Part shown: piece after piece, positions 1,218-29,440 of the stretch
Numbering within the stretch: position 1 is the stretch's first letter
Layout of the letters: every line of letters starts with the position of its first letter
IMG/VR virus record: IMGVR_UViG_3300020048_000074
Coordinates: 62,001-91,440 of that record
Length of the DNA: 29,440 nt
DNA from: an uncultured virus (IMG/VR IMGVR_UViG_3300020048_000074)
Taxonomy: Duplodnaviria; Heunggongvirae; Uroviricota; Caudoviricetes
Strand: one strand, 5' to 3'
Translations under genes and position numbers: made by a program
Notes under the pieces: generated by a model
Seen by the model: the letters and a program-made list of their open reading frames with translations, nothing else
The model's database searches: none
What the model was told of the DNA's origin: nothing

Positions 1218-3045
1218 AGGCGTCCTCCGGCTCCCTACCCATCGGGTAATCAAACGACCGAGCTATGGCTTCGATCCTGTCTTCATCTGAACTGAATTTC
1301 GATTTCAGCATATCAACAAGTTCCATTTTATTCGGTATGACATGCACATGCGTATACCGAGAATTCGTAGGGTGATCGATACTTACCACTTTAAGCGAAG
1401 GTGCAACCAATAGAAACTCTCGCTCATCCGCGTAGGCGGCTATATTATATTTATGTATAAGCTGTTCGGTACCATGATCCTCAGAGCCTTCTATCATGCT
1501 ATCAACGTCAACTCCAATAACTTTCGTCTCAGGTGTAAGATTTTCTTGATCTATAATAAAAATAGCGCCTGCCGAGTATTCTTCACCAACACTCGATGCT
1601 TTGGAAAAAGAAGCCATACCAAGCGGAATCACATCACCCACTTCACAGTTCATCCATTCCGTATTTTTTGATCCACGATACAGCTTATCGTCTTCAAGAA
1701 AATCGTACTCTGTAAAATGCCCATCGACTATAGTTTCTATCAATGAATCCCCTGACCACGTTCCCCATTCTTTTCCGTCTTCCTTCATTTGAAAATAATC
1801 CCGAGCTTTTTTTCTGTTTCCTTTAACCTCACCCCCAACCCAACGGCCAAGCAGGTGAAGCTGAATCCCATCCCATTCATTTCCACTGACGTCTTTCATG
1901 GACGTTGTTTCTTCAATCTCGTCTTGACGTTTAAGCATTATTTCGGTTACCGCTTCAACCGCCTCGTTAAGCGACACGTTATTTACAAATGCATATCCTA
2001 TTATTTCGTCGTCATCAAACGAAACCTCTTCAGAATGACTTGATACTCCGTGACCCTCATAATGTATAGGCCCTTTTTCAAGATGGTCCTCATGCTCATC
2101 AGCCCACTTTTCAACTTCACTTGCGGACGGATAGGTATGCCCACCAAACACTGAACTTTTTATAGCATCCCGGATATAACTAACAGCGGCATACCGGGAA
2201 ACAACTTCGTCCCAGTCAAGATTAAGGCGTATCGCGTCATCAAGCATGTGGTCTACTTGTTTGTCGCCTTCTACGAAAATCCTACGCGCCATGTCTGAAG
2301 TCATGTCTATAAACTCTTGCTTGTTTTTAAACAGCCGGTCTTCCAACCATTTTGAAATCTCAGCATGAGTCCTGTCTAATGCAAGAAACGCATTGAACTT
2401 ATCAATGCCCTCGTCTCCAAACACATCCTTTAACAGGGTATCGGTCGCCTCGTTATAATCTGTTATTTTTTTTAAGTTATTGTTTATCTCTATTTTTGTT
2501 TTCCATTTGTCATGCCTGCCTATCTTATCTGCTTGTTCAATAATCCTGTCAATTTTTTCCTGAGCCATAGGGTCCATTTTATGATGCATATCCGCTATAG
2601 CCTCTTCAGGGGTAACCGCAGGGCTTGATACCGCGATTCCAGTTGTCATCTCGTAGACCCGATAGTCTGGAAGCATTTCGATGTCATGGAGCGACGATCC
2701 CTGCAACTCGTTGCATACGAAAAACTTATGGCCACGCGATTCAAACGAGCTGTGCACATTTTCATCGGGCACCCGTACTGCCATGTTTACTCCACCAGCC
2801 TCCAACCTAACGTTTACATAAGTACCATCCGGCTGATTGTATGCCTCATGATTTTTCGACACCTTATCTTTTTTCTTTTTGTCCTGCTTAGGCTCATCCA
2901 CCTTTTTGTTTTTCTTGGCCATGTACTCATCGTAGTCCACTTTCACATAAAAGGTTTGAGTAAACGTTTTACCTTTTTTGGTTACCTGCTTTTCAACGGG
3001 AACCAAAGTGCTTATATTCTTTTTACCCTTTATAAACAAAAGCAT
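1195..3045 (-). CDS. ADP-ribosyltransferase (R-S-E class, VIP2/Alt-like C-terminal domain)
   Basis: Start MLLFIKG after GAGGT RBS. C-terminal motifs LYRG ... ASFS ... DEREFLL appear in the order of the R-S-ExE catalytic triad. Confidence 0.75.
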   Translation of the reverse strand: MLLFIKGKKNISTLVPVEKQVTKKGKTFTQTFYVKVDYDEYMAKKNKKVDEPKQDKKKKDKVSKNHEAYNQPDGTYVNVRLEAGGVNMAVRVPDENVHSSFESRGHKFFVCNELQGSSLHDIEMLPDYRVYEMTTGIAVSSPAVTPEEAIADMHHKMDPMAQEKIDRIIEQADKIGRHDKWKTKIEINNNLKKITDYNEATDTLLKDVFGDEGIDKFNAFLALDRTHAEISKWLEDRLFKNKQEFIDMTSDMARRIFVEGDKQVDHMLDDAIRLNLDWDEVVSRYAAVSYIRDAIKSSVFGGHTYPSASEVEKWADEHEDHLEKGPIHYEGHGVSSHSEEVSFDDDEIIGYAFVNNVSLNEAVEAVTEIMLKRQDEIEETTSMKDVSGNEWDGIQLHLLGRWVGGEVKGNRKKARDYFQMKEDGKEWGTWSGDSLIETIVDGHFTEYDFLEDDKLYRGSKNTEWMNCEVGDVIPLGMASFSKASSVGEEYSAGAIFIIDQENLTPETKVIGVDVDSMIEGSEDHGTEQLIHKYNIAAYADEREFLLVAPSLKVVSIDHPTNSRYTHVHVIPNKMELVDMLKSKFSSDEDRIEAIARSFDYPMGREPEDAYDSVSEA

Positions 3046-4089: not shown

Positions 4090-4476
4090 CTAAACCCCCA
4101 GCCCATGGTAACCCTTTTCGTTCGGCGCTCGGGGGATACGGTCAAGCTCCCCGGGTATCATGTGAATCTTTGCTGCGGTGATTGACTCTTCAGCCATCGA
4201 CCGAGCCTTTTCAAACGTGTCGCGCTCTCGAAGCTTCATGGAGTATCGGTGCTTCAGGTCCACCCCTTTTTCATCCATAGTTGCAGGATTCTCACTGACA
4301 TAAGGGGCCAACCGGGTACGAAGCGCTTTCAACTCATCGTTGACCCGGCGTATTCCTTCGTCAGTGGCTTCAAGAATTCCTTCCTGCTCCTTTATAATCA
4401 TGAGCGAATATGATTCACTCCGCGCACGCTCCTTATCGAGCTTGGCCATGTCGCCGTCAAGCTGACTGTTTTTCAT
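4090..4476 (-). CDS. Hypothetical coiled-coil protein
   Basis: Start MKNSQLD after GGAGG RBS, overlapping the end of the giant gene; charged, helical composition. Confidence 0.75.
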   Translation of the reverse strand: MKNSQLDGDMAKLDKERARSESYSLMIIKEQEGILEATDEGIRRVNDELKALRTRLAPYVSENPATMDEKGVDLKHRYSMKLRERDTFEKARSMAEESITAAKIHMIPGELDRIPRAPNEKGYHGLGV

Positions 4477-7400
4477 TACGAGCCTCCGCTTCATATTTAT
4501 TGAGCATCCCAAGGAACCCTGTCTCATCCAGTGCGTCAACGTCACGTGGATTGCCCATGATCTCTTGCTCTTTCCGCTTGGTTTCCATGATGTCTTCACC
4601 GCGCATATCAAACGGATTCGTACCGCTCAGTACATACGCATGGGTATCACGATCCTGACCCTTCCTGAACACACGGGCGTTTCGCTGCTGGAAAGCCGCG
4701 TAGCTGTCCGGGATATCCAAATGGAATGTAACCGTGCCACCGTGCTGAAGGTTGTGCCCGGATTCCAGCGACTTGGTTCCAACGATAAAGCGAAGCGGAT
4801 CATCCGGATCGTTGAATCGCTTCTTTAACTTGGCAATGGCTGCATTGGATGATCCTTCACCCTGACCTTGAATCACGCCAACGCATCCCGGCCCGAATTC
4901 CGCTTCAAGGCGTTCCACTGCGGTCTTCACGGCATGGATAACCGGGGACCCGGGCTTCGACAGATGGATAACCGCTTTTTCCCCGGGGTGGATGTTTTTC
5001 ATGATGTCCACCATCTTGTCGAGCTTGGCATTCTGCGTCGAATTGCCATTGGTCACGATCGCGTAGTTTCTGGAATCGCGCTGCGCCGACGCTCCCGGCT
5101 TCTTGGCGTCCCGGTCCATTCTATACTGACTCTCGCTTGCAGCATACCGCTTTCGTTGCTCAGGGGTAAGCGCCAAGCGCTCAGTGCTCACGGTGTTTTC
5201 AATCGGCAACGCGTTTTTCTGAGTGTATACCCATTCAGATATCTCTTTCCGGAAAGCATCGTTGGCAGCATCGGCAAACATTCCCGTTCCCTGATTCAAG
5301 CCATCGTACCGACTGTTGAACTCGCTCATTGAACCAAGCGTATGGTTGGGATCAATGAAGTTGATTTTCCGGTACAACTCGCTTTTCTTATTCTTGATGT
5401 TCGTGCCTGACATGGCGATCTTGAGCGGGATGTTCGAGATGTCCATGAGTGACTTGAACCGCCCAGCCTGTCCGGTGCCCGCTGTCATTTCGTGAATCTC
5501 GTCAACCACGATCATGTCGTAGCCTGCCTCTTTAATCATGGCAGCGTCTTCACGAAGCGCGTCCTGCGATATGATGTGAATGCCGTCTTGGTTATGCCGA
5601 GCCAACCGGTCCGCTCTCGAAGTGGTTTCCGTTGAACTATGAACAAGTTTGGCCATCTCCGGTTCAAGGAACTTATTTGACTGCTTATGGAAGTCACCAC
5701 GGGTCTTGGCCGGGGTTACCACAAGAATCTTTTTCGCTCCCTTGTTGTGCATCGCTTCCATCATGGCCGCGTATGCCATACCGGTTTTACCGATACCTGC
5801 TTCAAAGTCAAGGATGACCGCGCTCTTTTCCATAAAGAAACGCAAACCGGCTTCCTGTGCGGCATCCAACTTTACACCCGGGTTTACACCTGTCGGAAGG
5901 TACCCGTTATTCATCTCATGCCGCTTGATCTTTGCAGTTATCGATTCATCTTTCCGAAGCTGTTCATTACGCGTAAAGAAAGTATCCAACTGATCTTTTC
6001 GTATCTCAAGCACGAGACGCTTGGACCTGCCCTCTTTCAAAGTCTTGATCGAGTACGATCCCTTTGGCAGCCCGGCTTTCTTTGCCTTGTCACGAGCACG
6101 TGTAAGGTCTTTTCCGATATCCACCTGCACCACGTCCCCGGGCGGGTCTTCCAGCGCGTTTATCATAGCCGCTACCACGCGAAGGGAACCAACGGCGGTG
6201 CCAAGCGCCCGCTGCCCGGCAGTAAGCTGCTTCAGGGCATGGCCGTTTGCAGACGCCATGGACAAAATCGCCTCGGCATCATCGGTATCCCGGGCAAGGT
6301 TGCGCAGCTCATCGGCATTCGCAAACCGCCTATCGGATTCCGAGATGGCCTTGGTGACCACTTTTTCGCGTTCCTTGGCCGAATACTCTTCAAGAGCCTT
6401 TCTAACGGTTTCTCCCTTGCCATCGGACTGTAGTTTTATCGTCACGGCACGCACTACCGCTTCCAGCCCGAGGTTTTCTATGGTATCCGTGGAGAAAGTA
6501 GCGCCTGAGCCGTAAATATCGCCTAGCAGCCCGTTTAGAGCTGAAATAGAGCCTTGGTCTACGTGGGTTTGGATAGAATCGGACTGCGCATTGAGCCGAT
6601 CGTACAACTGCATGTTTTTCTGAGTCTCTATTTGCTGCTCTATCTCTGCCAGAATGTCTTCAGGAATGCTTTCGGAGTCACCTGAGTACGTGTCACCCAC
6701 TCGAAGCGTGACATGGGAATCCGCTTGGCCCTTCCCGATCGCTTTCATGGCCTTCTTGAACTCTTTCCGGGCCGTAAGTATCTGGATCGCCTTGTCCTTG
6801 TCCAAAAGCTTGCGCAATTCCGGTTTCATGTTCGGGTCGCCGGGCGCGTAGTCCTTCATGAGCGTATCGAGCGCTGCTTTTTCCAAATCCTTGGTCTGCT
6901 CCACGACTGCCTTTTTAACCAGCTCATTCGTTTTCTCTTCAATCGCCGCATCCGTCTCTTCAGGCGTCTTGTTTTTGACCTTGCCCTCTACCATGGCCTT
7001 GGCCTTGTCCGCGATAGCATCCATCTCGGCAGCGCTTATCTGGGAACGAAGCTCTTCCTGCGTGACACCCAAAATATTCGTTACCTTGTTGGTATACTCT
7101 TCCCGGGCAATTTTCTTGGCAGACACTTCAGCTTTTCGATTTGACACCTGCTCAGCCATCTCTTCTTTGGATAATTCCCGGAGGTCTTCGTTTCGTTTCT
7201 TCTCGACCTTCTTACGCTTCTCTGCGTAATCTTCCCGGGAAAGCACCTTGTCTACCTTCAGGTGATTCAGCTTGCCGCCCGCACCGCCGACCACGACATA
7301 CCCACCGTCCGAGGTTCCCTGCAATAGAACCTTGGCTCCACGGATTGTTACCCAACGCATATTTCGGCCTTTTATATCAGCCGCCGTATAATGCATCTTG

Positions 7401-10400
7401 GCCCCTGTAGCTTTTTCAAGGCTATGGAACCAATAGAATCGAGTCATCATGCCATGATCGCACAGGTACCAATCCCCTATGTCACTTTTCAATAACGTCA
7501 TGTCGGGTATCTTAATGTCTCCAATACTTTTCTGGACACGCGCCCCGAGCGAATTGATGCGGGATTCCATAACTCTCCTTAATGCCAAATCGTCGATGGC
7601 GTTGAGTATAATCTGCTTGTTATCCAATACCCTTTGTATCTGAGCGTCTACATCGGAATCCGATACCGTGGAGTATGCCCGCTTGCCCGCGCCCTTGTAC
7701 GGATCGCGCATAGATTGAATTTCACTTACGGAACCTTCAAACTTCTCGCCCTTTGGTTGACCTTGAGCACGATAGCGCAACGATCCACCGTTGTCTATGC
7801 GCCATGCTTTGTTTCCATCCCAAATGATATTGTCCTCAGCCAAGCCGAGGACATCCCAGTTACCAAGCAACGCATCGGCTACGAAACCGGCCTTGAGACT
7901 TTCGACCGCTTTCTTCCGCGTCTCGCTGTCTAGTTCGCCCATGGGGGTTCCCTCGATATAATCGGCAAGCTGCCCCAGCCCTTTGGGTCCTTCTTTAAGC
8001 TGGACATGGGGAACGGGCACGCCGAGTATTTCGTATATACGATTCGCCGTATACTCATCTTTAAGATGTGCTGAACCTGTTGAATACTTGAGCACCTTCT
8101 TGTCACCGCCCGGCAGTTCAAGCAGCATCGCGCCACCCGTGGTCCCGCCAAGATTTTTCAATACCTTGTGATCCGGAAGCTGCCGAGGGTTTCGTGTCGC
8201 GCCGTTATCCGGATAGGTATAAATCCACCGGCCATTCCTCCATACCTTTTTAATGTACTTCGTGGCCATGGCTTTTTCTATCTCTTCAGTCTTTGCCTCT
8301 TCTTTGGCTGCGACCTTCTTTTCTACTTTGCCCTTTACCGCTTCCTTATCTTTACCGGAAACAAGTTTATCAAAATCCTTTTTCAGGTTGGGCATCCCAT
8401 TGAACGGGTCGCCATCGGAAGGCTCACGGAAATCGTACATATCGTAGCTGTTGGCGTTCTCTCGTGCCTTCTCATCTTTCGGCTCTGCCTTTGGCTTTTC
8501 GGTCATGGCTTTAAACAACTCAGAAAGATATTTTCTGCGTAATGATTTTTCCATAAAGCGACCTTTACCCTCTCCCGATATCAGCTTAGGCGGCGGGCCT
8601 CCACTACTGTCACGGAACGACCACGAATCGGCCATCTCCCGGACCATCTCAAACGACTGCTCGTTTTTGGTGTTCCCTAAAATGACATCGACCGGGACGT
8701 ATCTCCCGGACTTTCCCATGAACCTTGACAACGCCCGCTCTGCCGCGATCTTTCTCGGGCAGTGCATATAGTGGCATTCAAGCGAGTAGTCACTGTTAAG
8801 AAAACGTTGCGCGGTGCCCACTGCCGAACGCGGCGTCTTCATGGTAGCGTCAACCACAACATTTAAACCATAGCTTTGTGCAATGGACATTACTTTCTCA
8901 AGGATGTCTGAAGACTCTTCGTGAACCTGAAAAGCATTCCACCCTTCGTATTCTTTGAGCATGCCCTTGATCTCATCGGCATCGAGCACAACGGTCTTTT
9001 CAGGATCGTACACTTGGCCTTTGAACCATGACTTTCCCGATCCACCACGACCGCCGAGCATTATCAGTACCGGCTTCTCACCCTTCGCGGGCTTTGCAGC
9101 AAGAAACTTTTCCGGGGGTATGACGCTCCGAATAATATCCTCGTGCAACCGAGTCCGATCTTCATCATATACCGCGCCAGCACCTTCCCCAGATATCCTG
9201 TATTTATGAATGGTCTGCTCAATATGCGCCAAACGCGCCTCGGCAGCATCAACTCGATTACGGGTCCCCGGGACTGCCTCTTCTGCCTTGTCAAGAATGG
9301 AATCCTTGGTGATAGCGGGATCATCCATCTTGGCTGCCCAGTCGTCTGCCTTGAACGACGCAGGCTCCACGTATTCTGTGGATGATCCTTCAGGTGCGGA
9401 ACTTACCGGCGTCTTCTTTCCTTCACCTGAAAAGCCGGTAACCTTATTCCATTCCACTTTCCGTATATTATTATTACCTATATCGACTGACGCTCCCTTT
9501 TGGCCCTCAGCCACGACCTTACCTTTTATGGTGTCTCCGTCTTTCCCCTTAAACTCCAAAGTGTCGCCCACTTCGATATTGTGCGTACCATATCCGCTCT
9601 TGCTGCCTCGAACGTCTTCCGGGTCTTTCTTATTTCGCTTCGTGGAATCCGGTGCGGCAGCTCCACGCTTTTTCGGGTCTGGCTCATCGGCTGCCGGTTG
9701 CTTGCCATCGGTATCCGCTACCCACTTGCCGCCCTGCTTCTTTACTTTCCTACCGCCATACACCCGGCGCGTCCCCTCGGGTAACGCTTTGGCCTTTTCC
9801 AAATCATATAAAATATCAGATGCCTTCTTTATCCCTTTAGGTTTAGATGCTTCTAATACTTCGTATACCAATTTTGGTATTGACAAAGTAATAGCGTACC
9901 CTTTTGGATCACGCCTCCTAAGCACGTAGTCTACTTTCATAGTTTCCATTTTTTTATCATACTCAACTTGTTGTTTATTATCCATTTTATTATACTTTGT
10001 TCGGTTAAAAACCACTTGAGGTACTTGTACTTCAGCAAACTCAGAATATTCCCCGCTATCTATTATATCTCGAAGTGACATGAGTTTATTATTATGGTTG
10101 TATTGCTTGCGTAATGCATTTATAACACGCCCACGCACCATTGGGGACAACTTGTTTATTTTTCCCATGTCAACATACACAGAAAGCCCAGTTTTTGTAG
10201 TATTAAAGTTGTCTTCTTTTTTTTGCTCAATCATTAGCTTAACATCATCTTCTTTTTTTATTCGTTCAGCATATAACGTATTTTTGTGTTTAACATATTC
10301 TTGCAAGTCACTAAACCCAGCTTTTTTCATTTCTTTTAAACGGTCTATAAATGCGTCAACCCCGCGCTGACCATACATTTTAACTGTTTTACCCGTATCG

Positions 10401-12118
10401 GTGTCGAGTATACTAAACATACCTTCCTGATCTTTTATTGGTGTTACCTGATATACTTCTTTCGACTTAATTTTTACAGCCTCGGGTTTACCCTTTACAC
10501 CCGCAGCGAACATTCCAGCAACCTCACTAGCATCAGTAAGCGGTTCCAACTTGACAACACGCATTTTGGTTACACCAAGCGCTTTCAGTTTTTTCAACAC
10601 CTCTTCTTTATTACTGTCGTTCAAATCAACCTTGTCGCTTATCACGAGGTCTTCGTAATCCTTCCCCGGAGCGACACCCCAAATGACATACTGGTTACCT
10701 TTTTTTACCGATACACTCTTCGACGGACTTTCGGAAGTTTTCGCTTTTCTGTTTTCCCTAAATGAGTCGCCCTCTGAGCGTAATAACCCATTTAACTTGT
10801 TATACCTTCGAGCATATTCTTGTAATAAAATCCCTTTTGCCTCTTCACCATATTTTTTTTCGTGAAGTGTAATTGCAGCCATAAGCTCTTTGTTGTCGTA
10901 TGGCTGAACAGTATGCTCATTGTTATCAAAAGTTTTCTCTGCAATGTTTTCAGCTACAGTCTTAATTTGTTTTTTGTCTTTTGAAGATATACCGACAACG
11001 GCAGCCTTACCTTTTGGAACATCGCGCCAGTCGCCCTCAGCTACTTTCTTACGCCCCTTAGACACCGTGCCTACTGGCATCTTTTTTGCCTTTTCCAAAT
11101 TCTTGGATTCCATCTCAGCTAAATGGGTATAGTATTCCGGGTCTTCCTGAAGGTGATCGAGCGCGATCTGCTTGGCAACCTCTTTGTCGTCTGTATGCTC
11201 CATCTCAGTATGGATTCCCATGGCAAGTTGTGATGGTCGAATCTTTTTCGTACTCTTGCCTACTTGGTACTTGCCCTTGTGCTTTAAGCTCTCAGCAAGC
11301 TTGGAAGCTTTCTCTATTTTTAATGCTGCCGCTAATTCTCTACGCGGCTGCGCGGTTATTCCATCATATAGGCTTACCACTTGAAGTTTCCCACCTTTTA
11401 AACCAACACCGATGATGACGCCCTGTTGCCAATCGCCACCGGCTTCAAAATACGCCACGCTTGAAGTGAGGCGAATCATATCACAATTTTCTAGGTCCAC
11501 GCCTTTTGGAAAACCTTCAAGCTCTTTTAAATTGTATCTATTCTTGCCTTCCAATAGACCTGAAGCATTAAGAGCAGCTACTAGCGCTTTTCTATCCTTA
11601 TTCTGCTCTGCGGTGTACACTACAGGTTTAGACTTCAGCTTTGAAAACGTAGGGTCAAGCTCAGACGACTTTTTCAGTTTCATACCTACCCGATCCTTCA
11701 ACATTGTTTTGAACGTGGCCATATCGTACACCGACATGCTCTGGAAAAACCCCGGGGAATCGTACTGTCGGCAATACGCGTGCTTTGCTTCCAACGCGTT
11801 ATTATATCCTAACATAACCTTGTCTTCGTCGTAAGCCTTTGTCTTCGGGTCCTGTTGATGAATCACGAACACTTTATCAGAAAACTGGTTTGGTCCGAGG
11901 TAACAATCGACGTGATCTCCATCGGTACCTTCAGTGGCTCGAATATACCCGTAGGCCATGTGCATGAACGTTCTCCATACATGGCCGTCTTCGGACGTAC
12001 CCTGCCGAATGCTGCCGCGCTCGTTCTCAATAGAAACGGGAAGACCCTGATAAGTGGTCTTCCCTTGCAGCTTTCGACTTCGCCAGTCTACCGCGTTCGT
12101 AATTATTCCAAGTTTCAT
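4457..12118 (-). CDS. 2553-aa polyvalent protein: iPyPase domain, DUF5661-like, SH3/KOW-like, zeta-toxin P-loop kinase, PI3K/HipA-like kinase, SWI2/SNF2 helicase
   Basis: SIEN..GS.R..YGYIR.TEG.DGDHVD..YDEDKVMLG (iPyPase); MGIHTEMEHT..IALDHL.EDP.YY; GGRGGSGKS..DADEIK..VHEESS (zeta); EY.AN.IY..LGVPVP..DALLGNWD..RIDNGGSL (kinase fold); GIGKT, DEIH, SGT, GHNLQ, QRNARVFRKGQ (SF2). Confidence 0.9.
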   Translation of the reverse strand: MKLGIITNAVDWRSRKLQGKTTYQGLPVSIENERGSIRQGTSEDGHVWRTFMHMAYGYIRATEGTDGDHVDCYLGPNQFSDKVFVIHQQDPKTKAYDEDKVMLGYNNALEAKHAYCRQYDSPGFFQSMSVYDMATFKTMLKDRVGMKLKKSSELDPTFSKLKSKPVVYTAEQNKDRKALVAALNASGLLEGKNRYNLKELEGFPKGVDLENCDMIRLTSSVAYFEAGGDWQQGVIIGVGLKGGKLQVVSLYDGITAQPRRELAAALKIEKASKLAESLKHKGKYQVGKSTKKIRPSQLAMGIHTEMEHTDDKEVAKQIALDHLQEDPEYYTHLAEMESKNLEKAKKMPVGTVSKGRKKVAEGDWRDVPKGKAAVVGISSKDKKQIKTVAENIAEKTFDNNEHTVQPYDNKELMAAITLHEKKYGEEAKGILLQEYARRYNKLNGLLRSEGDSFRENRKAKTSESPSKSVSVKKGNQYVIWGVAPGKDYEDLVISDKVDLNDSNKEEVLKKLKALGVTKMRVVKLEPLTDASEVAGMFAAGVKGKPEAVKIKSKEVYQVTPIKDQEGMFSILDTDTGKTVKMYGQRGVDAFIDRLKEMKKAGFSDLQEYVKHKNTLYAERIKKEDDVKLMIEQKKEDNFNTTKTGLSVYVDMGKINKLSPMVRGRVINALRKQYNHNNKLMSLRDIIDSGEYSEFAEVQVPQVVFNRTKYNKMDNKQQVEYDKKMETMKVDYVLRRRDPKGYAITLSIPKLVYEVLEASKPKGIKKASDILYDLEKAKALPEGTRRVYGGRKVKKQGGKWVADTDGKQPAADEPDPKKRGAAAPDSTKRNKKDPEDVRGSKSGYGTHNIEVGDTLEFKGKDGDTIKGKVVAEGQKGASVDIGNNNIRKVEWNKVTGFSGEGKKTPVSSAPEGSSTEYVEPASFKADDWAAKMDDPAITKDSILDKAEEAVPGTRNRVDAAEARLAHIEQTIHKYRISGEGAGAVYDEDRTRLHEDIIRSVIPPEKFLAAKPAKGEKPVLIMLGGRGGSGKSWFKGQVYDPEKTVVLDADEIKGMLKEYEGWNAFQVHEESSDILEKVMSIAQSYGLNVVVDATMKTPRSAVGTAQRFLNSDYSLECHYMHCPRKIAAERALSRFMGKSGRYVPVDVILGNTKNEQSFEMVREMADSWSFRDSSGGPPPKLISGEGKGRFMEKSLRRKYLSELFKAMTEKPKAEPKDEKARENANSYDMYDFREPSDGDPFNGMPNLKKDFDKLVSGKDKEAVKGKVEKKVAAKEEAKTEEIEKAMATKYIKKVWRNGRWIYTYPDNGATRNPRQLPDHKVLKNLGGTTGGAMLLELPGGDKKVLKYSTGSAHLKDEYTANRIYEILGVPVPHVQLKEGPKGLGQLADYIEGTPMGELDSETRKKAVESLKAGFVADALLGNWDVLGLAEDNIIWDGNKAWRIDNGGSLRYRAQGQPKGEKFEGSVSEIQSMRDPYKGAGKRAYSTVSDSDVDAQIQRVLDNKQIILNAIDDLALRRVMESRINSLGARVQKSIGDIKIPDMTLLKSDIGDWYLCDHGMMTRFYWFHSLEKATGAKMHYTAADIKGRNMRWVTIRGAKVLLQGTSDGGYVVVGGAGGKLNHLKVDKVLSREDYAEKRKKVEKKRNEDLRELSKEEMAEQVSNRKAEVSAKKIAREEYTNKVTNILGVTQEELRSQISAAEMDAIADKAKAMVEGKVKNKTPEETDAAIEEKTNELVKKAVVEQTKDLEKAALDTLMKDYAPGDPNMKPELRKLLDKDKAIQILTARKEFKKAMKAIGKGQADSHVTLRVGDTYSGDSESIPEDILAEIEQQIETQKNMQLYDRLNAQSDSIQTHVDQGSISALNGLLGDIYGSGATFSTDTIENLGLEAVVRAVTIKLQSDGKGETVRKALEEYSAKEREKVVTKAISESDRRFANADELRNLARDTDDAEAILSMASANGHALKQLTAGQRALGTAVGSLRVVAAMINALEDPPGDVVQVDIGKDLTRARDKAKKAGLPKGSYSIKTLKEGRSKRLVLEIRKDQLDTFFTRNEQLRKDESITAKIKRHEMNNGYLPTGVNPGVKLDAAQEAGLRFFMEKSAVILDFEAGIGKTGMAYAAMMEAMHNKGAKKILVVTPAKTRGDFHKQSNKFLEPEMAKLVHSSTETTSRADRLARHNQDGIHIISQDALREDAAMIKEAGYDMIVVDEIHEMTAGTGQAGRFKSLMDISNIPLKIAMSGTNIKNKKSELYRKINFIDPNHTLGSMSEFNSRYDGLNQGTGMFADAANDAFRKEISEWVYTQKNALPIENTVSTERLALTPEQRKRYAASESQYRMDRDAKKPGASAQRDSRNYAIVTNGNSTQNAKLDKMVDIMKNIHPGEKAVIHLSKPGSPVIHAVKTAVERLEAEFGPGCVGVIQGQGEGSSNAAIAKLKKRFNDPDDPLRFIVGTKSLESGHNLQHGGTVTFHLDIPDSYAAFQQRNARVFRKGQDRDTHAYVLSGTNPFDMRGEDIMETKRKEQEIMGNPRDVDALDETGFLGMLNKYEAEARNEKQSA

Positions 12119-20348: not shown

Positions 20349-20545
20349 TACACGTCCCTCCCCGTGGCTATCTTGCGAATATGAAATTCATCCACCCGGG
20401 CTTTCTGCCCAAATGAATGCCCCAAAAGCACATCGTACTCCCAGTGATCCCCGACACGAAACGCTTCAGTCACCCTTCCGCGCTTCCACATCATGACGCT
20501 GCTCGACATGACCTCGGCTACCACCGTATCACCTGTTCGTATCAT
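20348..20545 (-). CDS. Small hypothetical protein
   Basis: Start MIRTGDTV after GGAGGT. Confidence 0.7.
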   Translation of the reverse strand: MIRTGDTVVAEVMSSSVMMWKRGRVTEAFRVGDHWEYDVLLGHSFGQKARVDEFHIRKIATGRDV

Positions 20546-20798
20546 CGTTACCTCCACTCTCTCGTTTCTTTTGTGCCGCATCGAATATCGGTGAAGCGTC
20601 CAGCATGTCTTTGCAAAAATCCCCAAACGTGGGGGTGTGCTTTCTGATAAAGCAATACATCTCAGTGTACGACTCAAAATAAGCTGCATGTTGAAGCAGC
20701 TTCGCACGAAGCATCGTCATGGTAGCCTCGTGACTTACCATCTCCCTACGGATTTCGGCCAACGTAGCGTTCACCGATACTTCCTGCGCTTGGTTCAT
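20529..20798 (-). CDS. Hypothetical protein
   Basis: ATGA overlap with the upstream ORF; GAGGG RBS. Confidence 0.65.
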   Translation of the reverse strand: MNQAQEVSVNATLAEIRREMVSHEATMTMLRAKLLQHAAYFESYTEMYCFIRKHTPTFGDFCKDMLDASPIFDAAQKKRESGGNDDTNR

Positions 20799-20980
20799 TC
20801 CGTTACCCTCGCAAATATATAGTTACCGATGTACTCTTCAAGAGTCCATCTTCCCGGATATTCTTTGTCCATATATTTAAACTCAACAACCGCCTCGGCA
20901 TACCACGTGGATATGCTCTCAGGCGTCAACGTTTCTTTCTTGATGTCGGGCACCCATCTCATGCGTTTGGTGTCTAGCAT
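20795..20980 (-). CDS. Hypothetical protein
   Basis: GAGGT RBS; tiles with its neighbours. Confidence 0.65.
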   Translation of the reverse strand: MLDTKRMRWVPDIKKETLTPESISTWYAEAVVEFKYMDKEYPGRWTLEEYIGNYIFARVTE

Positions 20981-22460: not shown

Positions 22461-22910
22461 TTAGACATTCTTAAAACTTTTCATTACACCAGATTCTCTA
22501 CCAAAAATCACAAGTGCGAGAGGCTGTGGTAGACCATGAATACAACCCTTAAACTTAGGTCTTCCCTCAATGAACCAAATTTCACCCTTCATACACCAAT
22601 CATGCCACCATTTGGTATTTGTCCTTGTAGGAATAAGGCATACAGTAACAGCTTTATCCCTCTCATCATATGCTTTTTTAATAAACTTTTTCATATCCTT
22701 GTATGGTGGATTCATCCAACACACACCAGACCAAGATTTGTCTAAACAACTATCTTCCTCTGTATAGCAAAAAAGAACCTTCTTATTTTCTTCTGAAGCA
22801 CAAACATCACAAGTAAAATTAAACTCTTTATTGATAGCATTAAATAAGCTATCAGGTGTTTCAAACTGCTGGTTCTTACTTGCAAACCTGTTTTTATCAA
22901 AATTAGCCAT
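22461..22910 (-). CDS. Phage DNA N6-adenine methyltransferase (phage Dam family)
   Basis: FETP..LF..F..DVCAS..N, WMNPPY, LIPTRTNTKWW, FIEGRPKF; visibly AT-richer than its flanks. Confidence 0.9.
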   Translation of the reverse strand: MANFDKNRFASKNQQFETPDSLFNAINKEFNFTCDVCASEENKKVLFCYTEEDSCLDKSWSGVCWMNPPYKDMKKFIKKAYDERDKAVTVCLIPTRTNTKWWHDWCMKGEIWFIEGRPKFKGCIHGLPQPLALVIFGRESGVMKSFKNV

Positions 22911-24457: not shown

Positions 24458-24805
24458 CTAAAAACCGTCTTTCAAATCCACAAACGAAGCTGGCAAAAGA
24501 CTCCAACAAAACCACCCACTATAAGGTTCAGCCGATACCGGCGAATTATCCAAGCTAAAAGGAAGCACCCCGGCATAGTCCGTGGCCATGGCTGATTCAC
24601 CATGGAAGCTGCCATCCTTGTCTATCCAAAATAACATGACCGCAGCACCTACGGGCGGCTGTCCTACATTGTATGACGGGTAGGTTTGCACGCTTTCAGG
24701 TTTGGGTGGTACGAGCACGATGGTAAACAGAATCAAATTAAAACATAACAAAAGGCATATAACACCTATCACAACAGCTATGGACCTAATTCTGTCTTTC
24801 ATCAT
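24458..24805 (-). CDS. Single-pass membrane protein
   Basis: GGAGG RBS; long N-terminal hydrophobic helix followed by a Pro-rich linker. Confidence 0.75.
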   Translation of the reverse strand: MMKDRIRSIAVVIGVICLLLCFNLILFTIVLVPPKPESVQTYPSYNVGQPPVGAAVMLFWIDKDGSFHGESAMATDYAGVLPFSLDNSPVSAEPYSGWFCWSLLPASFVDLKDGF

Positions 24806-24817
24806 GCGTGATCCTCC

Positions 24818-24900
24818 AAAAAAAAGATGGCAGGGATGGGGGTTAGAGATTACTGAACTTGGAGGTTTGCTTTCTATGTAACCCCAAACTCCCTGCCACC
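24818..24900 (-). ncRNA. Putative small RNA/terminator hairpin with anti-Shine-Dalgarno loop
   Basis: GGUGGCAGGGA..GGGGUUA / UAACCCC..UCCCUGCCAUC stem, loop containing AGCAAACCUCCAAG, then U8; AT-rich promoter-like sequence just upstream. Confidence 0.65.
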
Positions 24901-24950
24901 TATATATTATCGATTTAGTGACCGATGTGTATCACCTATTTTTAATTATT

Positions 24951-25211
24951 TTACGATCGTGGACTCCCATCCGGATTGTACATCGGACCAAGCCCCAAAG
25001 CTTCCCGGTCTTCCCGCTCTTCAACCTTCGCCCACTTGTATTGGAACGATCGGTTTCTCAAGCTAAGGATTTCCTCTTCAGTAAAAAGATACGGGGTACG
25101 CGGTCCACCGGGCTGCACGCCTATTCCTAAGCGTATAGCGTAGTGCTTCAACGTATCCTGTTTTATGCCGAGAACTTCAGCCCCGGCTTTCGTAGTATAC
25201 AACTTCGACAT
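24951..25211 (-). CDS. MerR/excisionase-type HTH DNA-binding protein
   Basis: LYTTKAGAEVLGIKQDTLKHY..GIG..YLFTEEEI winged-HTH pattern; AAGGGGG RBS. Confidence 0.75.
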   Translation of the reverse strand: MSKLYTTKAGAEVLGIKQDTLKHYAIRLGIGVQPGGPRTPYLFTEEEILSLRNRSFQYKWAKVEEREDREALGLGPMYNPDGSPRS

Positions 25212-25280
25212 AGTAATCCCCCTTATAAAAACTGTCTATGGAGGGAATCGGACTTTGGCCGATTCCTACCGTAGGCGGTC

Positions 25281-25634
25281 TTACCTTCGCGTGAACGTCA
25301 AGCGCTCTTTCTGCTCATAAGCCATGGCAGCCCACACCTCATGGTACCGGGCATTGCGATCGAACGTAGCGCGTCTCAGTGCCCTGTCTTTGAAATTCGG
25401 GTAGTCAAGCGTTTGCACACTATCCACCAGATACGTTGCCCAGTCGTTTGCCTTTACGCTCATCCTGTACGGGTAATCGCACATCGGCGTTTCGATAACC
25501 TTGTCAGCATGCACGCGATCCATGATCCTTTCAAGGTCTTCCTTGAACCGGGCACGAATCATAAGCTTATCCGTATCTTTTTCTTTCGTCGGTTTAACTG
25601 CGCTGTAAAACCCATCCACTGTAAAAATCCACAT
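25281..25634 (-). CDS. Conserved phage hypothetical protein
   Basis: MWIFT.DGFYSAV..LMIRAR..DL..DYPYR..LDYPNFK pattern; GGAGGT RBS. Confidence 0.8.
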   Translation of the reverse strand: MWIFTVDGFYSAVKPTKEKDTDKLMIRARFKEDLERIMDRVHADKVIETPMCDYPYRMSVKANDWATYLVDSVQTLDYPNFKDRALRRATFDRNARYHEVWAAMAYEQKERLTFTRR

Positions 25635-25656
25635 GGTTACCTCCAATGGTACCTAT

Positions 25657-25905
25657 TCATCGCCCTTCAATAATCCAGTCTATCGCCTCGGCCTTCGCCT
25701 TGGTAATAATTTCTTCAGGATATCCACCGGCATTTGCCACTTCAGCACTCAGAGCTTCGAGGTCCATATCCAATAGCAAATCGACCCCGCTATGCTTTGG
25801 CATGCCTACATTTTTAATCAGCCACCGTCTAAGCTTTCTTCGGCAGTTCGCCAACACTCTATCGGCGTTTGCACGCGCCTCGCTTACAAACAAGTTATTA
25901 GACAT
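25657..25905 (-). CDS. Hypothetical protein
   Basis: Start MSNNLF after GGAGGTTTGT. Confidence 0.7.
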   Translation of the reverse strand: MSNNLFVSEARANADRVLANCRRKLRRWLIKNVGMPKHSGVDLLLDMDLEALSAEVANAGGYPEEIITKAKAEAIDWIIEGR

Positions 25906-25940
25906 ACAAACCTCCAATCGTCTACGGACTTTGGCCAATT

Positions 25941-26441
25941 TCAAAGTTTCATAGCTTTATTCTTAATATTAGACCGCATGTTATTTTGCTGCTCTTTCCT
26001 AGTAGCCCATCTACAATTTTCTTTGTAGTATCCTAAACTATTATCTATTCTATCTATTGATAACCCTTCAGGTTTATCCCCCATGTCTAAATAAAAAGTC
26101 CTAAAGTCTAACCACGCTTTACATACCGTAATCCCACGTCCACCGTAGTATTTATACTTAGGGTTTTTTGAATTGTTACACCTATTCACCATACCTTTCC
26201 AACTATTGTAGGATGAAACTTTACTTAAACTATGCGTAGTATTTCTCTGTGTTACCTTAACGGACACTAAGCATCCACACGATCTAGTCCACCCACTTCG
26301 TAGCTTATTCCCTCTAACTTTAACTATAGCTCCACAATCACATTTACAATTCCACAATGCCTCGCCCCTATTGTCAGAACCAAATCTTTCAATAACGACA
26401 AGACTTCCAAATCTTTTTTCAGTGATATCAATAAACGTCAT
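25941..26441 (-). CDS. Free-standing HNH-type homing endonuclease
   Basis: RFGSL.V..WNCKCDCG..SCGC..W..M..RC..YGGRGITVC..W..SIDRIDN..GY...NCRWAT..EQ.NN; AT-rich relative to its flanks. Confidence 0.85.
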   Translation of the reverse strand: MTFIDITEKRFGSLVVIERFGSDNRGEALWNCKCDCGAIVKVRGNKLRSGWTRSCGCLVSVKVTQRNTTHSLSKVSSYNSWKGMVNRCNNSKNPKYKYYGGRGITVCKAWLDFRTFYLDMGDKPEGLSIDRIDNSLGYYKENCRWATRKEQQNNMRSNIKNKAMKL

Positions 26442-26482
26442 GGTACACCCCCAAATGGAAGTATACCATGGCGTATTGAAAC

Positions 26483-27610
26483 TCACAACATGATTGTCTC
26501 TCCGAACGGGGGGACAAAATTCACGTTCTTTCGAGTGAGCACCCATAGGACCGGGAAGGCTGGTGCCGGTGGGAAGCGGTTACACTCACCATCGGTTTGG
26601 TATATCAAGCACGCCGGGCTTTCACCGGATTGATCCACATGCTCGAACGGGGGTCGGAAATCCGTACCACCGCCGCCGCTCGGATTAAGCTCCACGGCAT
26701 CCCCAGCTTCAAACCGCTCCACGTTGTTCACGTGGTCATCGCAGTATATCACCGTTGAACTTGCACCGTAGTCTTCTACCAAAGCGCGTACCTCAGCACC
26801 GAATGCTTTTAAATCATCCGGGGTTATACTCCCGGAAGTGTCCATAACCAACGTGACGTTTTTCAATTCTTGGCTTCGCAAGGAAGGAAGAATCACGCCC
26901 ATGTGCAGGTACCTCCGGTTTGGAGGGAACCACGCATAGTCGTTACTCGCGTTGGAATCCACGAAACGCCTCAGCAACTCTTTCCAGTTTAGCACTGGTT
27001 CGAGCAGGTCTTTCACAAGCCGGTCAAGACTTGCTGGTAGACTGCCCATGGCTTTCGCCTGCTGAGCTGCTTGGGCAACCGCGATTTTCCAATCCTGCGC
27101 GGACTGGGATACATCGCTTTCGGAAGGACTTGAACCGTCATCCGCAGTAGCGTCTTCCACGCCACCGCATCCACCCGGGTCATCGCCCTTACCATCCCCT
27201 TGGTCGCTGTCAGGCAACCGGGAATAAACCTGTTCAGCACTCATGTCGTGGTACTGAACCGTGTCTATCAGCCCGCCTCTCGGCAAGGCCAATCCGCAAC
27301 CAACTATCAACTCGTTGATAGCATAGTCGCAAGCTTCGTTCCACTTCCTCATCTCCCGGCTATCCCGCCGAGTATGATGCTGGTTGGAACAGTGCATGAC
27401 CTCGTGGCAAATCAGCCCCTTGGTTTCGTCAAGCGAAAGCCCCTCGATAAACTCCGGGTTATACCGGATACGTTTACCATCGGTGCACGCTGTCGGATTC
27501 TTCGTGGCGTCTTCCACAAGCGTAAGCCTCAGCGCTAAAGAGCCAAAAAATGGTTGATCCAAAATTAGCCCGGCACGCGCTTTGCTCATCTTGTCACTGG
27601 CTTTACTCAT
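26483..27610 (-). CDS. DUF2201-like metallopeptidase + VWA domain protein
   Basis: PFFG..TACTDG..HEVMH (HExxH)..WNEACDYAIN; MIDAS DTSGS..GGGGTDFRP..TDG. Confidence 0.9.
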   Translation of the reverse strand: MSKASDKMSKARAGLILDQPFFGSLALRLTLVEDATKNPTACTDGKRIRYNPEFIEGLSLDETKGLICHEVMHCSNQHHTRRDSREMRKWNEACDYAINELIVGCGLALPRGGLIDTVQYHDMSAEQVYSRLPDSDQGDGKGDDPGGCGGVEDATADDGSSPSESDVSQSAQDWKIAVAQAAQQAKAMGSLPASLDRLVKDLLEPVLNWKELLRRFVDSNASNDYAWFPPNRRYLHMGVILPSLRSQELKNVTLVMDTSGSITPDDLKAFGAEVRALVEDYGASSTVIYCDDHVNNVERFEAGDAVELNPSGGGGTDFRPPFEHVDQSGESPACLIYQTDGECNRFPPAPAFPVLWVLTRKNVNFVPPFGETIML

Positions 27611-27676
27611 ACAAACCTCCATGGGAAAATCTGGTTTCCCGCAAGAGGCTCTGTTTCCAAAGCCTCCCACGTGAGA

Positions 27677-28525
27677 TCAGTGCTTACCCAAATAAGCGCT
27701 CATTTTGTTGAGGATCGCTTGCGCATCCCCGGTAGCCTTGGTCCTTACTTTCGGGTCATTCCGAAGTGTTTCAGGCTCCATGGCACAGAGCTTCTTTTGG
27801 GTTTCCTTGCACAACTTATCCAAATCTGGATCGTCGGCAACGTTGAGCTTGGGCAACAGGTTGACCAGTTCAACTACGTTCTCGATAAGGGAGTCGCGGA
27901 AAATCGCGTCCTTATCGGCAAGCTTGTCAGCGAACTTTCCAACCACGTCGTTCAAGCGAACGTACAGGTCTTTGGTTGCTTCAACCACGCGGTCTTTCAC
28001 GCGGGCTTCAAGCTCTTTCTTGATCTTCACCGAATCGCTTGAGCTTACGTCCACGCGAAAATCTTCCGCGCTTGGTACCGGCTCTATATCAGTACCGAAA
28101 CCGAACTTGTGTTCGATCTCTTTCTTCCCCGGATAGTCGGCGGGGTTGAACATCTTACCCAGCTTGACGGCTGAGTCGTTGCGGTACTCGTCGTAGTTTG
28201 CAAGGAAGTCTCGAACTGCTTTTTCATACAGCTCTTTAAGCTCCCGCATTTTCTTCGAGTACGTCAGGAAGTTTTTGCTCGGCAGAATCCGTCCACCGCC
28301 GTCATCCCATGGCAGGGTGTTGACGTAGTGGAAAGTCCTCGCCGCGCTCACCGCTCTGGTTATCTCCTGTATGGCTTCCTTGGCTATCAGGACTTTGTTA
28401 TAGCGGCCAGCGGATTCACTCACCGCGTAATCGCTATTCACCTTTGCAGTAACTCCCTTGTCGAACTTCCGGGCAGTCCATGTCGATATGGAAAGCCGAA
28501 CTATCATCGCGTTGTCTCGTAACAT
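27677..28525 (-). CDS. DUF3150-like protein
   Basis: LSISTWTARKFDK..TLPW..GRILP..G.MFN.ADYP..LLPKLN..DDP.L; typical neighbour of AAA/VWA genes. GGAGGT RBS before MLRDN. Confidence 0.75.
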   Translation of the reverse strand: MLRDNAMIVRLSISTWTARKFDKGVTAKVNSDYAVSESAGRYNKVLIAKEAIQEITRAVSAARTFHYVNTLPWDDGGGRILPSKNFLTYSKKMRELKELYEKAVRDFLANYDEYRNDSAVKLGKMFNPADYPGKKEIEHKFGFGTDIEPVPSAEDFRVDVSSSDSVKIKKELEARVKDRVVEATKDLYVRLNDVVGKFADKLADKDAIFRDSLIENVVELVNLLPKLNVADDPDLDKLCKETQKKLCAMEPETLRNDPKVRTKATGDAQAILNKMSAYLGKH

Positions 28526-28613
28526 AGCAAACCTCCGTGCGGACTTTGGATTGCCGGGCTTGGAACCGGCAGGCCGCATTACTACCGTCTCCCTGTACGG
28601 TAGTCCTCTGCGA

Positions 28614-29440
28614 TTAGATTAGAACGTCAGCATGCTTGCTGGTCCACTCAATGAAGGCTCGTGTCTTCAAGAGCGTATCATCTCGATTGATACAATCGCG
28701 TATCAATAAAACCGAGAACTCAACCGGAAGACGGTTGGCGTATTTCACAACGTTACCCATATTCTGGTCGGATGCTTTTGTGGCCAACGCTCCACAGATA
28801 GCGTAGAGAGTCGCCGGGTCGGTGGGGACCGCCGCTTTGTCCGGTGCCATGAGCACCATGTCAGGATCGGGAAGACTTTGGAAAATCTTCAGGAACCCGA
28901 TGAACTCGGCTGCGTACCCTTCGCCCACAACGCCCTTGGCAAGGTCGTAATCGATCTGGCCATTTGAGGCGTCCATCAGTTGACTGAGGAACGTTATCGA
29001 CCTTGGTGTCGGGAACGCTTTCTCATTCTTCTGAGGATCGAACACATGCAACAGGGCAGGGCGAAACCTCTGGAAGGCAAGGACTTCGGTGCGAACACCG
29101 TTACCCAAACCCCATGTGATCCAGTCATCCAAGTCAACATCGAAGTCGAGGTGGACAAACCTGTTTGCCAACGGGCTTGGCATCCGGGAAGTAACTGCCC
29201 GGTCACCTTCCCGGTTTCCCGCCGCGATAACAACGGCGTCTTTGGGAAGCTCGTACTCACCGATCTTGCGATCCAACACAAGCTGGTAACAAGCGGCCTG
29301 TACAAGAGGTGGTGCGGCATTCAGTTCGTCAAGGAACACGAGATACTTGCCTTTAGTTTTAGGCAGGAATCCGGGCGGTGACCAAACTGCCTCGCCGTTC
29401 TCGATATGCGGGAGACCACGAAGATCAACCGGATCGAGCA
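28614..29440 (-). CDS. MoxR-like AAA+ ATPase, 5'-partial
   Basis: Frame open to the window edge: LDPVDLRGLP..FLDELNAA (Walker B)..AAGNR..PLANRF..PTPRS. Confidence 0.92.
   Translation of the reverse strand, partial: LDPVDLRGLPHIENGEAVWSPPGFLPKTKGKYLVFLDELNAAPPLVQAACYQLVLDRKIGEYELPKDAVVIAAGNREGDRAVTSRMPSPLANRFVHLDFDVDLDDWITWGLGNGVRTEVLAFQRFRPALLHVFDPQKNEKAFPTPRSITFLSQLMDASNGQIDYDLAKGVVGEGYAAEFIGFLKIFQSLPDPDMVLMAPDKAAVPTDPATLYAICGALATKASDQNMGNVVKYANRLPVEFSVLLIRDCINRDDTLLKTRAFIEWTSKHADVLI

Follow-up and report, generated by a model that had tools for sequence, protein, structure and literature searches.

Only a few phage-encoded small RNAs regulate genes of the phage itself. The closest described system is the c4 antisense RNA of phages P1 and P7, a phage-encoded structured RNA whose loops block translation of a phage mRNA by pairing at its ribosome-binding region; a section of PMC12197685 presents it as an example of a phage small RNA that blocks a phage ribosome-binding site (RBS), and a table in PMC2864571 gives the family, Rfam RF01695, and its taxa. 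The element described here resembles c4, and also the P4 CI and N15 CB RNAs, in being a predicted phage small RNA whose loop complements the RBS of phage mRNAs. A full-text literature search for a phage small RNA with an anti-Shine-Dalgarno (anti-SD) seed found none acting on a set of phage genes.

Three other systems share part of this logic. RsaE/RoxS-type small RNAs of Firmicutes repress the translation of several mRNAs, whose G-rich SD base-pairs with unpaired C-rich motifs in the hairpin loops of these RNAs; they are host-encoded and carry several short C-rich motifs, and they lack an extended SD "address" common to a contiguous gene block. T4 RegA shuts off a set of early phage mRNAs post-transcriptionally by occupying their RBSs, but it is a protein, whereas the repressor proposed here is an RNA. 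The lambda PR'-tR' leader ("6S RNA") precedes the lysis genes, and the likeness lies in the order of a gene for a small DNA-binding regulator, a promoter, a short terminated leader RNA and then a membrane or cell-wall lysis gene. The lambda regulator is the Q protein rather than an 86-aa MerR-like helix-turn-helix (HTH) protein, nothing in the present element points to antitermination, and we know of no anti-SD seed or matching RBS class for the lambda leader.

The DNA analysed here (the window, 29,440 nt) is the final 29.4 kb of a 91,440-bp IMG/VR record, G000, which has a GC content of 47% and is about 95% complete. All genes of the window lie on the minus strand. Their transcription order begins with an AAA ATPase gene (AAA_5 / phrog_1297), a Twister-P5 ribozyme, a DUF3150-like gene, a DUF2201_N and VWA-like gene and an HNH endonuclease gene, and continues with two small genes, the gene of the 86-aa weakly MerR/HTH_17-like protein, the hairpin element and the gene of a 115-aa protein; numerous small genes, a Dam methylase gene and a portal gene follow further downstream. 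The AAA gene is truncated by the contig end, so the end of the record is not the true genome end. A blastn comparison with INPHARED phages gave no match, and a tRNA/tmRNA scan found none. Sequencing runs containing the phage DNA come from aquatic or freshwater sites, and no run recorded as RNA was found to contain the stretch. Side observations include a second HNH gene (G000 20505-20969), a single 2553-aa open reading frame (window 4457-12118, minus strand) and a gene resembling type IB topoisomerase, an enzyme unusual in phage (window 14126-14920, minus strand; Topoisom_I E 1.7e-19, plus Top1B_N_bact). The features central to the locus are as follows.

25941-26441, minus strand: free-standing HNH endonuclease (phrog_374, E 8e-63), inserted between the VWA-like and 82-aa genes
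24951-25211, minus strand: 86-aa probable MerR/excisionase-type HTH protein (weak MerR_1/HTH_17 matches)
24901-24950, minus strand: promoter-like element GATACACAT..GGTC..ATCGATAATATATA (repeated copy; consensus scan)
24818-24900, minus strand: putative small RNA body, a long hairpin with a U8 tail (folding; eight homologues with the same architecture; arm-swap control)
24859-24871, minus strand: seed AGCAAACCUCCAA in the loop, with the core CAAACCUCC at 24861-24869 invariant in 8/8 members
24458-24817, minus strand: SD (GGAGG, 24813-24817) and gene of a 115-aa protein with an N-terminal membrane helix, a possible cis target

In its logic the element is closest to c4 of P1 and P7, and like c4 it has a loop complementary to phage RBSs, with the seed predicted to pair with five RBSs in G000 and with eight, three and three in relatives. 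It is nevertheless not a member of the c4 family: the RF01695 model gave no match to it even at E ≤ 10. Its single seed is centred on the SD, whereas c4 has two specific loops, and its predicted targets are many and lie in genes upstream of the RNA, whereas c4 has one downstream target gene. The c4 RNA is cut out of the leader of its own operon, unlike the present element, which apparently has its own promoter. The c4 RNA comes from Proteobacteria.

The hairpin RNA and its relatives

The initial annotation had described a hairpin with an anti-RBS loop, and the long hairpin, the U8 tail and the open loop AGCAAACCUCCAA are all present as claimed. The minus strand reads GGUGGCAGGGAG...CAUCCCUGCCAUC from 24900 to 24826 and folds into an 11-bp outer stem, a 7-bp inner stem and an open interior, followed by U8 (24825-24818), GGAGG (24817-24813) and an AUG at 24805. 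The 83-nt element has a minimum free energy of -34.1 kcal/mol; for the 145-nt intergenic RNA the value is -42.3 kcal/mol (z = -3.8), and none of 200 shuffled sequences was as stable. No Rfam family matched 24806-24950 at E ≤ 1 in a search of the whole window, nor did any match the element at E ≤ 10 in a search of 24700-29440 with lax filters.

Relatives were traced via homologues of the 86-aa HTH protein, which mark the loci of this family, in three IMG/VR contigs (G001-G003) and in metagenome fragments. Duplicates were removed (L005, L009 and L010 equal L002; L006 equals L003; L007 equals L004), and L014 and L015, weak matches of 19 residues that lack the element, were set aside, giving eight distinct members: the window, the three contigs and four metagenome fragments. 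Folding of all eight gave a long hairpin, an outer stem closing it and a U-rich tail after it. The hairpin interiors, 40-90 nt long, could not be aligned with one another, and the sole invariant internal block is CAAACCTCC (core CAAACCUCC, alignment columns C32-C40). On the coding strand of the stretch retrieved for each member, ACCTCC occurs exactly once, and always within (G/A)(G/A)CAAACCTCC(AA/TT). By calculation the seed is mostly single-stranded, with a mean P(unpaired) of 0.55-0.76 across members and an opening cost of 1.9-4.4 kcal/mol.

A MAFFT alignment of the eight RNAs left the outer stems out of register, and covariation was checked by arm swapping. Although the outer-stem sequences diverge, their pairing is kept in all members: the best partner of each 5' arm is its own 3' arm in 8/8 rows and 8/8 columns of the comparison, with energies of -24.2 kcal/mol for own arms versus -12.4 ± 3.3 kcal/mol for swapped arms. 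The position of the element relative to its neighbours varies, since in L003 and L013 it lies one gene further away from the HTH gene, and in L003 it is intact though the next ~217 nt hold no gene. Clear homology between the spacer that follows it in L003 and the spacer after the M23 peptidase gene of L012 was not found.

The element could be a plain intrinsic terminator of the early/HTH unit, with a loop conserved for some other reason, such as a protein-binding site, and a resemblance to the RBS complement that carries no regulatory meaning. Its GC-rich stem and U tract fit this reading, as does the lack of any other terminator between the HTH stop codon and the hairpin in the window, and covariation of the arms is expected in any conserved terminator. 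Yet the interior is far longer than the 3-8 nt of an ordinary terminator loop, a consensus terminator scan did not list the element, and in L004, L011 and L012 the HTH gene already ends with a separate terminator ahead of it. An invariant 9-mer amid an unalignable interior needs selection; only one of the 21 CCTCC occurrences on the G000 coding strand is unpaired inside such a hairpin; and the 4-nt extension of the loop matches the top RBS extension in all four phages considered below, which is unlikely by chance. We therefore judge a plain terminator highly improbable. Another candidate, a loop that is merely the complement of the RBS of an opposite-strand gene, was rejected, as no open reading frame there is conserved (7/8 members have none or one of ≤17 codons).

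An exact-motif scan of IMG/VR with GGCAAACCTCCTTAA gave 30 stretches, of which only two were genuine, both relatives already known; several of the remaining stretches are the complement of ordinary RBS-ATG sites. With GGCAAACCTCCAAG the same type of scan gave at least 116 stretches, of which 80 were retrieved; 71 of the 80 lacked an enclosing fold with a U-rich tail, and among the four best of the other nine, which were inspected, nothing resembled the element. It was also absent from 13/13 more distant VWA-phage loci and from 78/78 further distant ones (the other two of 80 being G001 and G002), and none of these 13 and 78 loci holds more than one GGAGGTTTG. All members form one narrow clade, so the co-occurrence of the RNA with the RBS class described below effectively counts as a single evolutionary event, and with the seed invariant in all members, covariation between seed and target is not visible. 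Taken together, folding and comparison of the members define what is predicted to be a conserved structured RNA with an exposed anti-SD seed, previously undescribed, in a small group of uncultured phages.

Ribosome-binding sites matching the seed

Three leaders complementary to the loop had been proposed for the window, and all three are found where they had been placed. The DUF3150 leader forms 11 Watson-Crick pairs with the seed, and the pairings with the VWA-like and 82-aa leaders comprise 11-13 pairs, one G-U included.

28526-28536, minus strand: target 1, RBS GGAGGUUUGCU of the DUF3150-like gene (ATG 28525), rank 3 genome-wide, -12.0 kcal/mol net
27611-27621, minus strand: target 2, RBS UGGAGGUUUGU of the DUF2201_N/VWA-like gene (ATG 27610), rank 8, -11.2 kcal/mol net
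25906-25917, minus strand: target 3, RBS UUGGAGGUUUGU of the 82-aa gene (ATG 25905), rank 4, -11.6 kcal/mol net

The complement of the seed core CAAACCUCC is GGAGGUUUG, which ranks first among extended RBSs in each of the four phages for which sufficient sequence was available. In the window, GGAGGTTTG occurs on the minus strand at 25907-25915, 27612-27620 and 28528-28536, each copy 1-2 nt ahead of an ATG, and on the plus strand at 24861-24869 as the complement of the loop; these four matches compare with 0.24 expected, and 0/100 shuffles reach four. The coding strands of G000, G001, G002 and G003 carry five, eight, three and three copies, all 19 of which are RBSs located 1-6 nt ahead of a start codon, and a reversed-pattern control on the same strands gave none. 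After GGAGG, TTTG is the top or tied-top 4-mer in each of the four phages; pooled, it follows 19 of 113 GGAGG RBSs versus 3.2 expected from per-position frequencies, and the next 4-mer follows five.

The GGAGGUUUG RBSs occur only upstream of the RNA gene, where they precede the AAA ATPase, DUF3150, VWA-like and small genes. In G000, GGAGGTTTG marks 5/12 upstream RBSs versus 0/33 downstream (p = 6.5e-4), a count that takes in the block 837-2868 at the other contig end, which we infer to lie upstream; in G003 the figures are 3/13 versus 0/24 (p = 0.037). The initial annotation had proposed that pairing extends beyond the generic SD into a UUUG spacer, and had allowed that GGAGGTTTG might simply be common in the RBSs of this genome. 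The first claim is borne out by an extension that matches an RBS class confined to the upstream early block. The second is half true, since this extended RBS does rank first, yet it does so within that block alone.

The 9-mer is retained in orthologues of the AAA (3/3), VWA (3/4) and DUF3150 (2/4) genes, while its flanks and the spacing to the ATG have diverged. The RBS of the VWA-like gene is conserved in the G001 and G002 orthologues, and the VWA and DUF3150 RBSs of G003 each have one mismatch to the 9-mer. The called start of the G002 DUF3150 orthologue lacks such an RBS, and this start may be mis-called. For the 82-aa gene, the 9-mer is present in G000 only and the RBS is not conserved in relatives.

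Pairing strength was estimated from duplex energies plus the cost of opening both partners; these were used in place of RNAcofold of the small RNA with the leaders, which is uninformative because its nested model cannot put an intermolecular helix in a closed loop. Net energies were -8.8 to -12.0 kcal/mol for the GGAGGTTTG class and -3.5 to -7.0 kcal/mol for other GGAGG RBSs. Any CCUCC loop scores well against strong SDs, and this ranking is partly circular. Among all coding-strand positions of G000, the five sites rank 2, 3, 4, 8 and 12; the first rank goes to an internal site (53,569) whose pairing partner is the 3' part of the loop.

The block that carries these RBSs also contains ribozyme matches and three families of repeated structured intergenic motifs.

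28554-28612, minus strand: Twister-P5 self-cleaving ribozyme (Rfam RF02684, 53.3 bits, gathering 37.6, E 1.3e-8)
L033 (G001) 9529-9590, minus strand: second Twister-P5, before the orthologous gene (39.9 bits)
G000 2878-2940 (L154; outside the window), minus strand: Hammerhead type III-like match (39.4 bits, below gathering 48.5; E 2.4e-6)
G000 genes starting 2618, 2182 and 1325: type a leaders, with CCACCUAC, a covarying hairpin and GGGGGGAYACUUCCCC right before the SD; also in G001
G000 genes starting 89610 (window 27610) and 267: type b leaders, UGAUCUCACGUGGGRGGCUUUGGAAACAGAG...
G000 genes starting 1730, 87211 (window 25211), 87905 (window 25905) and 90525 (window 28525): type c leaders, CCUAYGGUAGG...CCAAAGUCCG

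The Twister-P5 ribozyme sits in the AAA-DUF3150 intergenic region, 17 nt upstream of the GGAGGUUUG RBS of target 1. After cleavage, the DUF3150 mRNA would begin with a short 5'-OH leader that includes the tagged RBS. The hammerhead-like match, which has one extra U in the CUGAUGA core, is situated just upstream of another GGAGGUUUG RBS. None of the three leader families matched Rfam; they could be unrecognised ribozymes or translational switches, and in type a the CUUCC could pair with the SD instead of the G run. Paralogous repeats occur among the early-block leaders, as at the genes starting at G000 2618 and 1325, and part of the RBS sharing in this block is therefore due to common descent.

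These repeats bear on a reading in which the regulatory RNA is real but acts on host mRNAs or binds a protein, the early-block RBSs not being its targets and GGAGGUUUG being a local RBS habit spread by duplicated intergenic cassettes. Both the repeated structured leaders and the ribozyme-RBS cassettes of the block speak for it. Against it stand the retention of the 9-mer in orthologues with diverged flanks, its fixed position relative to the SD rather than to the start codon (ATG spacing 1-6 nt), and a pair of homologous leaders (G000 89610 and 267) that differ exactly in the extension, TTTG versus TAAC. We consider this reading distinctly unlikely.

The upstream element, the downstream gene and pairing in cis

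The 45-50 nt before the hairpin, a phage-specific promoter-like element, recur once per phage, directly ahead of the RBS of a protein gene, in 3/3 phages examined (G000, G001 and L012; column identity 76-77%), and the likeness of the two copies stops where the hairpin or the SD starts.

G000 ~22,530-22,600, minus strand: second element copy, 76% column identity, preceding the UvsX-like recombinase/SbcCD gene block
L033 (G001) ~2600-2680 and ~1640-1720, minus strand: two element copies (upstream-sequence comparison)
L012 ~1770-1825 and ~2772-2827, plus strand: two element copies (upstream-sequence comparison)

This repetition ahead of a protein gene, together with the separate HTH terminator that precedes the element in L004, L011 and L012, makes a dedicated promoter for the RNA probable. 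Within the element, a -10-like GATAAT/TAATAT is located at 24904-24911, and a sigma-70 consensus scan gave GTGATA-18-GATAAT (9/12).

The GTGA-N10-TCAC dyad noted previously is present at 24918-24935, inside the repeated element, but on its own it is at chance level (one occurrence versus 0.32 expected; 29/100 shuffles have at least one). In the second G000 copy the dyad arms change from T..A to C..G with symmetry retained, a hint from two copies only. The adjacent gene had been called an HTH gene, and it gives weak matches to MerR_1, in 4/4 aligned homologues (best E 2.3e-4), and to HTH_17 (E 0.026), all of them below the Pfam cut-offs. A PDB sequence search with the HTH profile gave nothing useful; a profile search of genome contigs with the HTH-protein alignment found no prophage relatives and thus gave no clue to the host.

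On the other side of the hairpin, the gene of the 115-aa protein begins directly after the U tail, and the cis match UUGGAGG that had been reported directly after the U tract is present. No family was found for this membrane protein, and as a probe of IMG/VR it detected no relatives. It is unrelated to the peptidoglycan hydrolases at the same position in relatives, where the element is followed directly by a gene for a hydrolase with an N-terminal transmembrane (TM) anchor, of the Peptidase_M23 type in L004, L011 and L012 and of the SLT type in L002.

L004 3455-4150, L011 1930-2604, L012 1926-2609 and L002 3407-4042, all plus strand: post-element peptidoglycan hydrolases (domain matches)

This arrangement adds weight to the alternative offered in the initial annotation, a cis switch on the downstream membrane protein, in which the RNA would be a cis leader or attenuator of the next gene, a role compatible with one in trans. 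The terminator would stop most transcripts; in those that read through, CCUCC would mask the SD, or the loop and the 3' arm would compete for pairing with the G-rich 5' arm, and a dangerous cell-wall enzyme would be kept off until the right time. The gene order fits, with a TM or hydrolase protein encoded next in the window and the four relatives above, and with an SD ~0-25 nt past the U tail in 7/8 members, which leaves no space for another promoter. The seed can pair with the downstream SD (-6.5 to -15.3 kcal/mol), and in 3/7 the variable 3' flank also matches the SD (AA/UU in the window and L008; UU/GA in L004). In 8/8 nascent-RNA folds, the partner of CCUCC is the G run of the 5' arm.

The details of the seed agree less well with such a role. 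In pairing with the seed, the real 5' arm shows no advantage over shuffled G-rich arms (fraction of shuffles at least as good 0.03-0.97). Pairing with the downstream SD uses CCUCC(AA) only; for the CAAA half of the seed, which is invariant, no member offers a partner in cis. The element of L003 stands intact with no gene behind it, those of L003 and L013 have moved one gene further from the HTH gene, and a cis leader leaves the block-specific GGAGGUUUG RBS class unexplained. On the evidence of the unpaired CAAA and of L003, cis pairing does not explain the seed as predicted here. A cis leader as the principal role, the main rival to a function in trans, is possible though doubtful; the RNA may possibly gate the downstream gene in cis as well.

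Proposed function and significance

We propose that the element is a trans-acting anti-SD small RNA that represses translation of the early gene block, an explanation to which we give a roughly even chance. A phage small RNA of ~85-110 nt would be transcribed from its own promoter and end at its own hairpin and U tract, with the hairpin interior presenting CAAACCUCC single-stranded. The seed would then form 9-13 bp with GGAGGUUUG(C/U), the RBS found at many genes in the upstream block (AAA ATPase, DUF3150, VWA-like and several small genes), some of them with self-cleaving ribozymes in front. Such pairing would cover the SD and exclude the 30S subunit, and translation of the block would fall as the RNA builds up. 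We infer all four of these steps, the discrete RNA, its pairing in vivo, the repressive effect and its timing, from the conservation and complementarity described above.

A more elaborate version, rather doubtful in our estimation, treats GGAGGUUUG as an address code that tags the ribozyme-processed block; an RNA from a middle-class promoter would shut this block and at the same time restrain the hydrolase gene in cis, and one RNA would serve as a dual trans and cis timer of infection. The original interpretation of the locus is supported in part, namely for a conserved RNA with an anti-SD seed and a matching RBS class confined to one block; the control by the HTH protein proposed there gained no support, and the dyad alone has not risen above chance.

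A shared extended RBS that addresses a whole gene block would, if the proposal is true, be a compact means of timing early shut-off. The target block holds twister and hammerhead-like ribozymes just upstream of tagged RBSs, and the role of phage-associated ribozymes is described as still unsettled in a part of PMC6765202. The more elaborate version, if true, would for the first time place the twister and hammerhead ribozymes beside such phage genes, long unexplained, in a regulatory context.
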